A stretch of 64,000 nucleotides of DNA from Nannocystis bainbridge (GTDB lineage: Bacteria; Myxococcota_A; Polyangia; Nannocystales; Nannocystaceae): contig NZ_JAQNDL010000001.1 of assembly GCF_028368995.1 (NCBI RefSeq), positions 4,352,001 to 4,416,000 on the forward strand, written 5' to 3'. The position numbers and the translations under genes were made by a program. This document shows positions 2,825-62,393 of the stretch, in pieces (position 1 is the first letter of the stretch; every line of letters begins with the position of its first letter). Under the pieces are notes generated by a model that saw only the letters and a program-made list of their open reading frames with translations, did not search any database and had not been told where the DNA came from.

Positions 2825-3928
2825 ATGGAATTCGAGATCGATCAAGCAAGGTTCCTCTCCGCACTCGCGCTCGCGCAGACCGTCGCCGACAAGCGCAGCA
2901 ACAACATGCCGATCCTGGCGAACGTCCTGCTGCGCACGACCAAGGACAACCGCCTCGTCTGCAGCGCGACCGACATGTTGATCTCGATCACCGAGAGCAT
3001 CCCCGTCGAGGTGAAGACCCCGGGAGCGCTCACCCTCGGCGTTCGCTCCCTTCACAGCGTCGTCCGCACCCTGCCGAACAAGCCGATCCGGGTGAAGTCG
3101 GCCGAGAACCACTGGGCCGAGCTGGCGGTCGCGCGCAGCTCTTTCAAGCTCATGGGGCAGGTCCACACCGACTTCCCCGAGCTGCCCGACACCAAGGGTC
3201 AGCGCTTCATCACCATCCCCGGCCACGCCTTCTCGGACCTGATCCAGAAGACCCAGTTCAGCGTGTCAACCGACGAAGCGCGGGTCAACCTCAACGGCGT
3301 CCTCTTCGAGTGTGACGGCGTCACCGGCACCATGGTGTCGACCGACGGCCACCGCCTCACCAAGTACAGCCTCCCGCTCGCCGGCCCCAAGCTCGAGCGC
3401 GGCATCATCATCCCGCGCAAGGGCATGATGGAGATCAAGCGCGTCCTCGACCGCGTCCAGGGCGAGGTCGGCCTCGCCGTCGACGGCCAGCACATCTTCG
3501 TCCAGGCCGCCGACCTCACCCTCTCGGTCAAGCTCAACAACGTCGTCTTCCCGCCCTACGAGAAGGTCATCCCGGGCGAGCACAAGCGGCGCGTCACGGC
3601 GGCCCGTGACGAGCTCACCGACGCCCTCAAGCGGGCCGAGGTCATGGCCCCCGAAAAGACCGCCACCGTGCGCGTCCAGCTCGACAAGGGCACCTTGCAC
3701 CTCACCGCCGACAACCCCGACCTCGGCGTCGCCCATCAGGAGCTCGAGATCGACTTCGAGGGCGAGCCGCTGGTCGCCGGGTTCAACGCTCGCTACTTGA
3801 TTGAGGTCCTCGAGGCCATCGACGCCAAGGAGGTCCACCTCGACTTCCAGGGCGAGCTCGACCCCTGCGTCGTCCGTCCGGTCGGCGACGTCGACCTCCT
3901 AGGCGTCGTCATGCCGATGCGCATCTGA
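2825..3928 (+). CDS. dnaN: DNA polymerase III beta sliding clamp
   Basis: STDGHRL, FNARYL, C-terminal VVMPMRI; position after dnaA. Confidence 0.99.
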   Translation: MEFEIDQARFLSALALAQTVADKRSNNMPILANVLLRTTKDNRLVCSATDMLISITESIPVEVKTPGALTLGVRSLHSVVRTLPNKPIRVKSAENHWAELAVARSSFKLMGQVHTDFPELPDTKGQRFITIPGHAFSDLIQKTQFSVSTDEARVNLNGVLFECDGVTGTMVSTDGHRLTKYSLPLAGPKLERGIIIPRKGMMEIKRVLDRVQGEVGLAVDGQHIFVQAADLTLSVKLNNVVFPPYEKVIPGEHKRRVTAARDELTDALKRAEVMAPEKTATVRVQLDKGTLHLTADNPDLGVAHQELEIDFEGEPLVAGFNARYLIEVLEAIDAKEVHLDFQGELDPCVVRPVGDVDLLGVVMPMRI

Positions 3929-3943
3929 CCTTCGGGACAGGTC
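3924..3943. repeat. Single unit of the 14-bp palindromic repeat family
   Basis: TGACCTTCGGGACA 3926-3939, overlapping the dnaN stop codon. Confidence 0.55.
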
Positions 3944-3956
3944 TCGGTACCCGCGC

Positions 3957-5114
3957 GTGCTGCTGCAACACCTGAGTCTCCGCGAGTTCCGCAACTTCGC
4001 CGCGGGCGACCTCGACTTCGGCGCCCGCTTCACCGTCCTGCACGGCCCCAACGGGGTCGGCAAGACCAACATCCTCGAGGCGCTCTACCTGGTCGCCACC
4101 TTGCGCTCGTTTCGCTCGGCCGACCTCGGCCCGCTCGTGCGCCACGGCGCCGCCGAGGCCCGGGTCGAGGTCAGCGGCCACGACCGCCAGCTCGACCTCG
4201 GCACCCGCCTCGCCGTCCACCTCGCCCGCACCGCCCGCCAGACGCGCCGACTCGCCATCGCCGACGGCAAGACCGTGCGCTCCGGCCCCGACTTCTACGG
4301 CCGCCTGCGCGCCATTCTCTTCACCCCCGAGGACCTCGGCGTCCTGCGCGGTTCACCGACCGGGCGGCGCCAATTTCTCGATCGGGCTCTGTTCGCGCGC
4401 GATCGCGCCCACATCGCCGACATCGCCGACTACGACAAGCTCCTGCGCTCGCGGAACCGCGTCCTGCGGGGCGAGGACGCCGGCATCGCCCGCGGGCAGC
4501 AGGACGGCCTCCTCGACGCCTACGACGCCGGCCTGGCCGCCGCAGGGGCCCGCATATGGGTCCGCCGCGAGCGGCTGCTCACCGACCTGCGCGGCGCCTT
4601 TGCCGAGGCCTTCGCCCAGATCCACGGCCGCCACCTCGGCGTCACCCTGGAGTACCTCAGCAAGCTCGCCGGTGAGCCCGGGGTGGCTGCGGCCGACCCG
4701 CAGGCGCGCCTCGCCGACGCCTTGCGCGGCGCGCGGCGGCACGACCTCGTGCGTGGCACCACCACCGTCGGCCCGCACCGCGACGACTTCGAGGTGCGGC
4801 TCGACGGCCAGGACGCGGGCGCCTTCGCCTCGCAGGGTCAGGCTCGCGCGCTCATCCTCGCCTTCAAGATCGCCGAGCTGCAGGACGCCCGCGCCCGCGC
4901 TGGAGAGGCTCCTGTCCTGCTGCTCGACGACGTCTCGAGCGAACTCGACCCACAGCGCTCCGCCCAGCTGTTCGAGGCGCTTTTGCGCGAGGCTGGCCAG
5001 TGTGTCCTCACGACCACTGCCCCGCACTTCATCGGCCTGCCGGCGGGCGCCGATTGCCGCTACATCGAAGTCGACAAGGGTCACATCAAACTCGGCGGCG
5101 ACAGCGGCCCGTAA
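3957..5114 (+). CDS. recF: DNA replication/repair protein RecF
   Basis: GPNGVGKTN, GPHRDD, SQGQ, LLLDDVSSELD motifs; GTG start. Confidence 0.98.
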   Translation: MLLQHLSLREFRNFAAGDLDFGARFTVLHGPNGVGKTNILEALYLVATLRSFRSADLGPLVRHGAAEARVEVSGHDRQLDLGTRLAVHLARTARQTRRLAIADGKTVRSGPDFYGRLRAILFTPEDLGVLRGSPTGRRQFLDRALFARDRAHIADIADYDKLLRSRNRVLRGEDAGIARGQQDGLLDAYDAGLAAAGARIWVRRERLLTDLRGAFAEAFAQIHGRHLGVTLEYLSKLAGEPGVAAADPQARLADALRGARRHDLVRGTTTVGPHRDDFEVRLDGQDAGAFASQGQARALILAFKIAELQDARARAGEAPVLLLDDVSSELDPQRSAQLFEALLREAGQCVLTTTAPHFIGLPAGADCRYIEVDKGHIKLGGDSGP

Positions 5115-5229
5115 CCGGCTCAAAACCCGGAAAAACGCCCGTTTGGGCGTGGCACGCGCGACCTTCGGGTGGTAGGATCCGGGCGCTGTTTTCAGCCGCA
5201 GGGCCGTCGCCCGCGCCCTCGGAAGTCCC

Positions 5230-60558: not shown

Positions 60559-61263
60559 ATGCCCGCCACGATCCTCATCGTCGACGATGAGCGCGACCTG
60601 CTCGACTCGCTGCGCTTCAGCCTCGAGCGCGAGGGCTTCTGCGCCCTCACGGCCCAGAACGGCACGTCCGCGCTGTCGCTCATGGGCCAGAGCCCGCCGC
60701 CGGACCTCGTGCTGCTCGACTGGATGCTGCCCGACATGGCCGGCACCGAGGTCTGTCGCAACATCCGCATGACGGAGCGGACGCGCGGGACGCCGGTCAT
60801 CATGATCACGGCCCGCAGCGAGGAGATCGATCGGGTGGTCGGGTTCGAGCTGGGGGCCGACGATTACGTGACGAAGCCGTTCAGCGTGCGCGAGCTGCTG
60901 CTGCGCGTAAAGGCGATCCTGCGCCGCCGCACGACCGACGATCCGTCGACCGAGGAGCAGCACTACGAGCTGCTGCGCGTCGACCACGACGGCCACCAGG
61001 TGTGGGTTCAAAATAGCCGCGTGACCCTGACCGCGCTCGAGTTCCGTTTGCTGGCGACGCTGCTGGCCCGCCGCGGCCGGGTGCAGACCCGCGACACGCT
61101 GCTCAACGACGTGTGGGGCGTGCAGGTCGACGTCACGACGCGCACGGTCGACACGCACGTGCAGCGCCTGCGCAAGAAGCTCGGGGCCGCCGGCCAGTAC
61201 ATCGAGACGCTCCGCGGCGTCGGTTACCGCTTCCTGCTGCCCGAGCGCGAAGCGACGCACTGA
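60559..61263 (+). CDS. phoB: OmpR/PhoB-family response regulator, PhoB-like
   Basis: LLDWMLP, ITARSEEIDRVVGFELGADDYVTKPFS, TRTVDTHVQRLRKKL, IETLRGVGYRF. Confidence 0.8.
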   Translation: MPATILIVDDERDLLDSLRFSLEREGFCALTAQNGTSALSLMGQSPPPDLVLLDWMLPDMAGTEVCRNIRMTERTRGTPVIMITARSEEIDRVVGFELGADDYVTKPFSVRELLLRVKAILRRRTTDDPSTEEQHYELLRVDHDGHQVWVQNSRVTLTALEFRLLATLLARRGRVQTRDTLLNDVWGVQVDVTTRTVDTHVQRLRKKLGAAGQYIETLRGVGYRFLLPEREATH

Positions 61264-61300
61264 GAGAAAGTTACGACGGCTCGCCCGCTCGCTCGCGGCG

Positions 61301-62239
61301 TCACTTCGGCCGCAGCCCGCGGCGCAGGGCGTCGCGCAGGTCGCGTTCGAACCGCTGCGCCACCTCGGCGTGGGCGACCATGTCGAACCCGTGGAACGCC
61401 CCGGGATAGACGTGCAGCTCGGTCGGCACGCCCGCCTGCAGCAGCCGCTGCGCGTACGCGACGTCCTCGGCGAGGAACAGGTCGAGCGCCCCGACGGCGA
61501 GGTAGGTCGGCGGCAGGCCCGAGAGGTCGCCGGCGCGAGCGGCCGCCGCGTACTGCGAGACGTCCTCGGCGCCCGGCTCACCGCCGAGCAGGGACTTCCA
61601 GCCGAACCGGTTGTCCTCGTTCGTCCACACGAACTCGCCGGCGTGCGGCCGCGGCTCGGCGACGACGGTGCGATCGTCGAGCATCGGATAGACGAGCAGC
61701 TGAAACGCGACCGGGACCTCGCCGCGATCGCGCGCCATCAGCCCGAGCGCCGCCGCCAGCCCGCCGCCGGCGCTCTCGCCCCCGATGGCGATCCGCCGGC
61801 GATCGACGCCGAGCTCTTCGGCCTGCGCGTGCAGCCACTTCAGCGCCGCGTAGCAGTCCTCGATCGCCCCGGGGAACGGGGTCTCGGGCGCGAGCCGATA
61901 ATCGACCGAGACGACCACGCAGCCGAGCGCGCTCGCCAGCGCCTGGTTGCGCGCGGCAGCGATGTGCGGCGAGCCCATCACGTAGCCGCCGCCGTGCATG
62001 TGCAGGTACGCCGGCCCGAGCCCGAGGCGCCGCGGCGGCTCGTAGACGACCACTCGCACCTCGGGCGCGTCCTCGGGTCCGGGCACGGTCCGCTCGGAGG
62101 CGACGAGGTCCCCGAGCGTGTCGCCCGCGGGTGGCATGAGGGCGCGTAGCTGGGGCAGCGACTGGGCGTTCAGCCCAAAGGCCGGCATGGCGCTGAGCAG
62201 CGGGAGCAACTGCGGGTCGACGAGGTGACGTGAGGACAT
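61301..62239 (-). CDS. Alpha/beta hydrolase (HSL/Aes-like esterase)
   Basis: HGGGY, VDYRLAPE, GESAGG, HGF. Confidence 0.95.
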   Translation of the reverse strand: MSSRHLVDPQLLPLLSAMPAFGLNAQSLPQLRALMPPAGDTLGDLVASERTVPGPEDAPEVRVVVYEPPRRLGLGPAYLHMHGGGYVMGSPHIAAARNQALASALGCVVVSVDYRLAPETPFPGAIEDCYAALKWLHAQAEELGVDRRRIAIGGESAGGGLAAALGLMARDRGEVPVAFQLLVYPMLDDRTVVAEPRPHAGEFVWTNEDNRFGWKSLLGGEPGAEDVSQYAAAARAGDLSGLPPTYLAVGALDLFLAEDVAYAQRLLQAGVPTELHVYPGAFHGFDMVAHAEVAQRFERDLRDALRRGLRPK

Positions 62240-62356
62240 GCGGCGAGGGCCAGTCTGAAGCAAGCGCCGACGAGGGTCCACCCGCCGCTCACGGGTGCGC
62301 TCCCGCTCGCGATCGCCCCGAACGCGAACCCCTCGCGCTCGACATCGCCACCGAAC

Positions 62357-62393
62357 AAGATGTCTGTATAGACATGTTCAAAGGAACATGTCG
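62357..62393. repeat. 14-bp-phased array in a divergent intergenic region
   Basis: GATG 62359, CATG 62373, CATG 62387 (TGTCTGTATAGACA, TGTTCAAAGGAACA). Confidence 0.85.

Follow-up and report, generated by a model that had tools for sequence, protein, structure and literature searches.

The stretch examined here, referred to as the window, comprises 64,000 nt of the Nannocystis bainbridge genome (positions 4,352,001–4,416,000 of NZ_JAQNDL010000001.1, assembly GCF_028368995.1). Dispersed through its gene spacers, and in places overlapping stop codons, are copies of a 14-bp palindrome with the core unit TGTCC-N4-GGACA (hereafter the box), which occurs either singly or tiled head to tail in exact register. 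Two or more boxes in register are termed an array. The window contains 15 arrays of 2–10 boxes and 15 strong single boxes (Table 1), close to the roughly 20 loci reported in an initial annotation of this DNA. The genome as a whole (label G000; 11.05 Mb in 5 contigs, 71–72% G+C, 90.5% complete) contains 2978 arrays of 2–11 boxes, an average of 17.3 arrays per 64 kb. In kind, the element looks like a gene-end palindromic repeat that is apparently undescribed and genus-specific; a keyword search on Nannocystis and myxobacterial repeats, at the level of titles, turned up no published description of it.

Abundance and anatomy of the palindromic boxes

Box matches were scored on the ten specified positions of TGTCC-N4-GGACA. 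At a cut-off of at least 8/10, the window holds 73 boxes, compared with 20.1 ± 5.1 in 200 order-3 Markov simulations. Pairs of boxes at lag 14 number 12 against a simulated mean of 0.01 (maximum 1), and none was found at lags of 5–13 or 15–23 bp. The CATG, CCTG and CAGG junction cores recur at lag 14 in 55 cases, compared with 14.3 ± 3.5. Across the genome, 1987 perfect boxes stand against ~7 expected (scaled from 2 in 3 Mb of simulated sequence) and 4258 boxes matching at 9/10 against ~195 expected, which gives 6245 boxes at 9/10 or better. Genomic box pairs at lags of 14, 28, 42, 56, 70 and 84 bp number 2784, 1527, 977, 548, 241 and 110, respectively; lags of 13 and 15 bp have 4 and 5. The phased arrays are therefore real and far above chance, and the exact 14-bp phase described in the initial annotation is borne out by the large excess over simulation at lag 14.

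The coordinates cited in that annotation were all checked and hold. The CATG cores at 43234, 43248, 43262, 43276 and 43290 are present as cited, as are the six in-phase cores at 26503–26573, the cores at 7720, 7734, 7762 and 7776, and those at 51866–51908; the cores at 15911 and 15953 lie 42 bp apart. Seven cores had been placed at 20427–20511, where six are in phase (20441–20511) and the one at 20427 is degenerate. At 48097–48209, for which nine had been given, eight cores are in phase.

Table 1. Boxes and arrays in the window, with their positions and surroundings.
Feature	Positions	Surroundings
Single box (9/10)	3926–3939	Fills 29-bp co-directional spacer; 2 boxes in three relatives
Boxes 7708–7735 (2), 7764–7777 and 7812–7825	7708–7825	Convergent spacer beginning right past stop at 7704
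Perfect single box	14541–14554	Convergent spacer
Two in-phase single boxes, 15899–15912 and 15955–15968	15899–15968	Convergent spacer
2-box array	19782–19809	Fills 33-bp co-directional spacer
6-box array 20429–20512 over stop at 20465, and 2-box array 20550–20577	20429–20577	Convergent spacer
2-box array	22266–22293	Convergent spacer
2-box array	25218–25245	Spacer divergent according to crude gene calls
Six in-phase cores (boxes 26505–26518 and 26547–26574 plus degenerate boxes)	26503–26574	Convergent spacer
Three single boxes	28665–28782	Convergent spacer
2-box array	32636–32663	Within predicted gene 31392–33293
4-box array	35618–35673	Spans 33-bp spacer, overlapping upstream stop and downstream start; highly conserved in three relatives
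2-box array and perfect single box	39363–39456	Past stop at 39289
6-box array	43222–43305	Between stop at 43224 and 3′ end of tRNA-Ser (43320–43406, minus strand)
10-box array	48085–48224	Stop codon (ends 48106) inside second box
4-box array	51868–51923	Fills 53-bp spacer between co-directional minus-strand genes
Single box (9/10)	52689–52702	Kept in three relatives
Single box (9/10)	59981–59994	Close to gene boundary
2-box array	62361–62388	Spacer 62209–62705

Base composition was counted in 6808 boxes from arrays of at least three. The outermost arm positions (T1, G2, C13 and A14) are 88–97% conserved, C4, C5, G10 and G11 74–78%, and T3 and A12 58–60%, with transitions as the chief alternative. 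The four central bases are diverse and A/T-enriched, with a pyrimidine preferred at position 6 and a purine at position 9. Isolated boxes show a longer palindrome, RSM-TGTCC-YNNR-GGACA-KSY, corresponding to a two-fold symmetric site of ~20 bp, and position −1 is C in 63% of the isolated perfect ones.

The spacing is rigid both within and between boxes. Perfect arms are separated by four bases in 1987 cases genome-wide, by three in 16 and by five in 5. The junction GGACA-TGTCC occurs 956 times with no gap and 11 times with a gap of 1 bp, with ~13 per gap expected by chance. More than half of the perfect boxes (1051 of 1987) have no box beside them, and just 33 of the 956 perfect junction decamers are without both outer half-sites. 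Since isolated perfect boxes are common and isolated junctions rare, the box and not the CATG junction is the primary entity. The initial annotation had described fixed junction cores around a freely varying centre; the conservation of arms and phase agrees with this, but the conserved entity is the box, and the centre is not entirely free, given its A/T enrichment and its preferences at positions 6 and 9. The terminal ACA of one box satisfies the RSM flank of the next, so that 14 bp would be the closest compatible packing.

No conserved flanks or termini were detected around the arrays beyond a degenerate half-site, and a 28-bp super-period, in which strong and weak boxes would alternate, was looked for and not seen. 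There is no T-tract 3′ of the arrays, the frequency of T being 0.10–0.22 at +4 to +42 of 526 oriented arrays. Of 2784 pairs of adjacent centres, 93 have the same sequence, against 35 expected, and 58 are reverse complements of each other, against 33 expected. Small excesses of box pairs were also observed at lags of 36 (110), 27 (53) and 48 bp (82), compared with ~20–60 at adjacent lags. Outside the window, an 11-box array (C3:1347890–1348044) and a 9-box array (C3:1816595–1816721) sit in long open reading frames, both being built of a 42-bp unit (three boxes, 14 codons) repeated three times. The boxes there may be tolerated, or co-opted as a protein repeat.

Arrays occur in all 53 of the 200-kb bins into which the genome was divided, with 7–98 per bin (mean 54); their distribution is over-dispersed, and no region is free of arrays or has them exclusively. 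This bears on the roles put forward in the initial annotation, namely a nucleoid organiser of the Noc, SlmA or MatP type, a non-canonical centromere, or a mark linked to CATG methylation. The palindromic site and the CATG in its cores speak for these roles. The Noc, SlmA, MatP and parS systems, however, have tens of sites that are confined to or excluded from parts of the chromosome, whereas the 2978 arrays are found in every bin and are linked to protein-gene ends, and CCTG or CAGG replaces CATG in many boxes. We consider all of these roles very improbable.

Placement at gene ends and conservation among relatives

The strongest functional clue is the link of the boxes to gene ends, which was absent from the initial annotation. 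Gene positions were taken from a simple codon-usage gene caller made for this analysis (7921 genes, 83% coding). Among the 665 arrays of at least five boxes, 361 lie in convergent spacers, 221 in co-directional spacers, 69 in called genes and 14 in divergent spacers. An array overlaps the interval from −10 to +80 after the stop codon in 1631 of 7052 well-scoring genes (23.1%), compared with 393 (5.6%) around the start. Arrays are found in 58–65% of convergent spacers of 60–400 bp and in only 2 of 366 divergent spacers shorter than 150 bp, while their share in co-directional spacers climbs from 10% (20–40 bp) to 30% (>400 bp). At least one box is present in 676 of 946 convergent spacers of 60–400 bp, in 705 of 2332 co-directional spacers and in 110 of 959 divergent spacers. 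The boxes are the sole conspicuous gene-end feature found in this analysis.

Placement relative to the stop codon is close and, in part, exact. In co-directional spacers, an array begins a median of 33 bp past the upstream stop and ends a median of 157 bp before the next start (941 arrays). Arrays are also closer to stops than under uniform placement (median 33 versus 57 bp). Stop offsets peak at −3 (129 cases), where TGA forms box positions 1–3, at +2 (110 cases), where TGA forms positions 10–12 of a degenerate preceding box, and at −8 (40 cases), where the stop lies within the four central bases. Isolated boxes (n = 2533) behave similarly, with 224 in the first 25 bp past stops and 11–33 per 25-bp bin within genes, a difference of ~10-fold. 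By our reading of the counts, summed array length reaches a plateau at ~70–85 bp regardless of spacer length, and the modal total in the convergent spacers above is five boxes (172 spacers). Of the 102 tRNA genes, only 6 are followed within 80 bp by a box and none is preceded by one; boxes are thus rarer behind tRNA genes than behind protein genes.

A distribution of this kind could potentially be generated by molecular drive without any function at the locus, either through preferential uptake, as with DNA uptake sequences (DUS) and uptake signal sequences (USS), or through biased repair or conversion, such that the box accumulates where constraint is lowest. The 6245 copies of a short taxon-specific word would be in keeping with drive, as would the presence of arrays in every 200-kb bin, the sparser single boxes of sister genera described below, and the near absence of arrays from short divergent spacers, which bear promoters. 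Boxes are enriched inside genes as well, with ~1640 single boxes in called genes against ~170 expected by our scaling of the simulation, and genes of atypical codon usage carry fewer arrays (12.7% in the lowest decile, 27–31% in the top deciles). Under drive, however, array length would be expected to scale with free space, and instead it levels off with a mode of five boxes. Spacers also tend to be either filled or empty (270 of the 946 convergent spacers have no box), and arrays are closer to stops than uniform placement predicts and rare behind tRNA genes. DUS and USS are not, to our knowledge, known to tile in strict register, and we know of no uptake bias in Nannocystis. Drive is accordingly regarded as an improbable explanation.

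The boxes are largely restricted to one genus. Of 41 related genomes, 9 had matches to a two-core pattern, all 9 being Nannocystis, and 75 of 78 matching loci in a collection with one genome per species came from records titled Nannocystis, Nannocystaceae or Myxococcales. An 18-letter single-box pattern was found 369 times in N. bainbridge, 2–266 times in each of 10 other Nannocystis genomes, 5 and 2 times in two sister genera, and not at all in 28 other genera; a reversed control pattern gave 0 matches in all genomes. In the sister genera (G011 and G013), the boxes are single and not tiled, have the longer palindrome ACATGTCC-N4-GGACATGT, and in several cases lie in A/T-rich DNA near gene starts. 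The genes beside seven such sites share no common theme and include no regulator. A palindrome scan that does flag the motif in the 64-kb window detected no comparable tiled word in the small samples, of 42–140 kb, taken from five genomes of other genera.

Synteny with three other Nannocystis species is held throughout the window, which allowed orthologous spacers to be compared. Boxes are kept in the relatives in 53 of 56 comparisons for the 19 box-bearing spacers of the window, and occur in 5 of 75 comparisons for its 26 box-free spacers, all five being single boxes by our count. Box number and centre vary by species. The array at 48085, for example, has 10 boxes here and 7, 5+3+2, 2+3 and 7 in relatives. 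Where spacer length is conserved, identity between species is 0.93 in the outer arm, 0.77 in the inner arm, 0.60 in the centre and 0.75 in other intergenic columns, figures that derive from a small sample of related genomes (22 spacer–relative pairs, 42 box comparisons). An alignment of 51860–51930 illustrates this pattern, with invariant ACATG and ACCTG junctions and fully divergent centres between them. As orthologous spacers keep their boxes, and arms and register are maintained while centres drift, the arrays are old and have been inherited in place. In one relative (G001, C1:12535300–12548300, positions 2804–3191), the 5-box array beside the tRNA-Ser locus is present three times with a spacing of 159 bp, which suggests that the tRNA gene and its array were duplicated together.

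This stability is difficult to reconcile with a mobile element of the repetitive extragenic palindromic (REP) or miniature inverted-repeat transposable element (MITE) type, copied by a transposase, even though a dispersed, high-copy, extragenic palindrome of one genus would superficially resemble one. Presence and absence are concordant at orthologous spacers in the three species, with no sign of recent insertion. Conserved flanks and termini are lacking, and the centres are near random, with few identical neighbours, so there is no master copy. The Y1 transposase of the REP-associated tyrosine transposase (RAYT) family (PF01797) had 0 matches in the N. bainbridge genome, with the control matching 6 of 14 genomes. 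Such an origin is scarcely plausible.

Proposed recognition of the boxes and the Rho context

We tentatively interpret the boxes as a sequence-read gene-end signal that would most simply be bound as duplex DNA by a candidate dimeric protein. The box would then be a vertically inherited, genus-specific signal, recognised through the sequence of its ~20-bp two-fold symmetric site and not through its ability to pair, for which a dimeric protein on duplex DNA would be the most economical reader. At a packing of 14 bp, each dimer would be rotated by ~120 degrees about the helix relative to the one before it. Blocks of up to 5–6 boxes directly behind stops could serve both genes at convergent junctions, and their role may be to stop or insulate transcription in a lineage where Rho was not detected and there are few U-tract terminators. 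We infer that a protein reads the box, that DNA and not RNA is read, and that the outcome is the definition of transcript ends. Side-by-side binding of a dimeric protein had also been suggested in the initial annotation. Judged from sequence features, this part would fit the rigid spacing, the independent arms, the strand symmetry and the conservation of arms but not centres, whereas the analogies drawn there with Noc, SlmA, MatP and centromeres are a misfit.

The arms show no compensatory covariation, and neither do the flanks. No arm pair, whether inside a box or spanning the junction, has mutual information above 0.016 bits, and C3–G12 pairs on the sense strand of co-directional spacers number 96 against ~99 expected under independence. 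Watson–Crick counts for flank pairs in 2585 isolated boxes are 1378 at −1/+15 (1278 expected), 922 at −2/+16 (1022 expected) and 957 at −3/+17 (982 expected). The boxes are nearly strand-symmetric, and the words in the loop are symmetric. We also considered arrays as long perfect hairpins, and rejected this because the centres of neighbouring or mirrored boxes are barely more alike than chance. Conserved stems, free loops, a fixed loop length and a linker of zero are what a dimeric reader of duplex DNA would predict, and independent RNA hairpins need none of them.

The boxes might instead act at the RNA level, as an element resembling REP or the Tuberculosis Rho-independent terminator (TRIT) of Mycobacterium, in which single or nested hairpins end transcription or shield mRNA 3′ ends. 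A factor that reads the double-stranded RNA stem is possibly involved, and the palindrome would let the element work in both directions. Placement right past or over stops and the strong preference for convergent over tandem over divergent spacers are as known for REP and TRIT, and a co-directional share that grows with spacer length is as would be expected at operon ends. These points are offset by the missing covariation and U-tract, and by a loop fixed at four and a linker fixed at zero. A conserved stem with a variable loop would moreover be the opposite of what most hairpin-binding proteins recognise, and the pyrimidine/purine preference at positions 6 and 9 could not lengthen an RNA stem, since it would leave a loop of 2 nt. 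Single 5-bp hairpins would also be weak, yet single boxes are placed in the same way as arrays. We consider an RNA-level element somewhat unlikely.

Several observations nevertheless count against a signal read as duplex DNA at gene ends, and some of them lend weight to the RNA-level alternative. Transcribed arrays are predicted to fold stably, with z-scores of −4.1 to −8.9 in four of six tested and −1.8 in the other two. Wobble-compatible changes on the sense strand show a small excess over mismatches (1080:913), and mirrored deviations around the array centre are present, although weak (0.23–0.24 compared with 0.11–0.18). The rarity of boxes behind tRNA genes fits an mRNA-specific role better than a general roadblock on DNA. 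Arrays also occur where termination seems unwanted, in 70 of 639 co-directional spacers of 20–60 bp. Judged by local coding potential, a single uninterrupted reading frame encloses 300 of 1391 two-box arrays, 156 of 921 arrays of three to four boxes and 27 of 665 longer ones. The gene calls behind the placement counts are crude. Finally, no candidate reader was found among the families described below, and Rho loss does not by itself account for the arrays.

A more specific form of the DNA-bound signal would have a dedicated DNA-binding protein with sequence specificity polymerise on the tiled boxes behind stops, producing a genome-wide protein roadblock, comparable in kind to mTERF or Reb1, in a lineage that lost Rho and lacks U-tract terminators. 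We consider this form unlikely. The box matches the operators of PadR-family regulators, given as ATGT-N8-ACAT (PMC3506622), in that it reads cATGTcc-N4-ggACATg. The PadR family (PF03551), however, had 0 matches in N. bainbridge and G001, with the control matching 14 of 14 genomes, and a PadR gene is found in just 4 of 10 other Nannocystis genomes, though all of them bear boxes. The junction decamer GGACATGTCC fits the p53 half-site rule, RRRCWWGYYY; a search for the P53 domain gave 0 matches, as did its control in every genome. CsrA, which binds GGA arrays, is present, but it was rejected because its distribution does not follow that of the arrays: it occurs in 17 of the 24 other family genomes, irrespective of whether they bear arrays, and no match was detected in the array-bearing genome G010. 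An autoregulated reader encoded beside boxes in 19 short divergent spacers was likewise not supported, with 0 of 38 flanking proteins having a DNA-binding Pfam domain, which is a further point against the DNA-bound signal.

The Rho RNA-binding domain (PF07497) was detected in 0 of 25 genomes of the Nannocystis family, N. bainbridge included, and in 13 of 16 genomes from other families of the class, with the control matching 9 of 14 genomes. The rho model TIGR00767 similarly had no match in three Nannocystis genomes, namely N. bainbridge, G001 (one contig) and G010, whereas a genome from another family yielded a full-length match of 696 bits. Haliangium ochraceum is reported as the sole Rho-less species among 12 Myxococcota in a 2024 survey, which also describes Rho-less bacteria as depending heavily on intrinsic terminators (PMC11347177). 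Such dependence would favour an RNA-level element. In 20 kb of the window, terminator-like consensus sites number 10, compared with 4.9 ± 2.2 in shuffles. Other Rho-less genera of the family are without arrays, so that Rho loss does not suffice to explain them.

The window contains several further features. A small bacterial signal recognition particle (SRP) RNA at 40392–40487 adjoins tRNA genes at 40508–40592 and 40640–40724 on the minus strand. A 72-bp tandem repeat at 12576–12763 (2.5 copies, 93% match) lies in predicted gene 12396–14516 and is apparently proline-rich. An imperfect long tandem repeat at 17771–18019, with periods of 12, 24 and 27 bp (consensus AAGACCGCCAAG and similar), lies in predicted gene 17708–18043 and would give its product a tail rich in lysine and alanine and similar to that of histone H1. 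At the 3′ end of predicted gene 37769–39289, a GGC/CGG-rich repeat (39052–39287; periods 3, 24 and 42 bp) is predicted to specify a glycine-rich tail, and a 2-box array follows ~75 bp past the stop.

Comparison with known systems and significance

The distinction of the pattern from REP, MITE, clustered regularly interspaced short palindromic repeats (CRISPR) and parS, made in the initial annotation, holds on the features tested. CRISPR have repeats of 23–50 bp with unique spacers of similar length, whereas the boxes are 14-bp units in which the four central bases vary. MITEs carry terminal inverted repeats, a target-site duplication and a fixed interior; the arrays have no conserved termini, their centres vary, and they occupy orthologous positions. 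Unlike intrinsic terminators, the arrays are without a U-tract.

Tiling itself has precedents. The met-boxes of MetJ, the heptads of omega and the boxes of ParG are arrays bound by small dimeric proteins, with one or a few per replicon, at promoters or centromeres. Like the arrays described here, they consist of short head-to-tail sites with short variable spacers, repeated at a constant period that does not match whole turns of the helix. In Nannocystis, by contrast, 2978 arrays lie at gene ends, and no such protein was identified. The DUS and USS of Neisseria and Pasteurellaceae resemble the boxes in being short taxon-specific words, present in thousands, also within genes and commonly at gene ends, but they are not known to form in-register tiles of a palindrome.

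Should transcript ends be defined by the boxes, these would reveal how gene ends can be marked without canonical terminators in a large, G+C-rich and Rho-less genome. Their reader would then count as a new factor for termination or insulation, acting on a lattice defined by sequence. If they are instead a product of drive, tiling a palindromic word at a strict 14 bp would be something new for such a process. For genome annotation in Nannocystis, a producer of natural products, the boxes offer an inexpensive and accurate way to mark where genes and operons end and to tell native from acquired DNA. A compact gene-end module that works in both directions would also be of use in engineering.

Two systems are closest in behaviour. 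REP elements, with a unit of ~35 bp, and bacterial interspersed mosaic elements (BIME) are likewise high-copy extragenic palindromes of one taxon that are found after stops and between convergent genes, often in clusters. The boxes differ from them in their 14-bp unit, zero-gap strict register and variable centre, and in having no master sequence, no RAYT gene, no conserved flanking tetranucleotide, and positions that are stable across species. TRIT is one long hairpin with 147 copies; like the boxes, it is genus-restricted, palindromic and hence bidirectional, conserved in sequence, and tied to and partly overlapping stop codons, and in both cases a reader has been suggested (PMC3152330). The boxes belong to another phylum, number in the thousands, are single or tiled up to 11, and have no Rfam match at the gathering threshold or at E ≤ 1. 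The element thus behaves like REP/BIME and, more closely, like TRIT, a likeness in kind and not one of homology.

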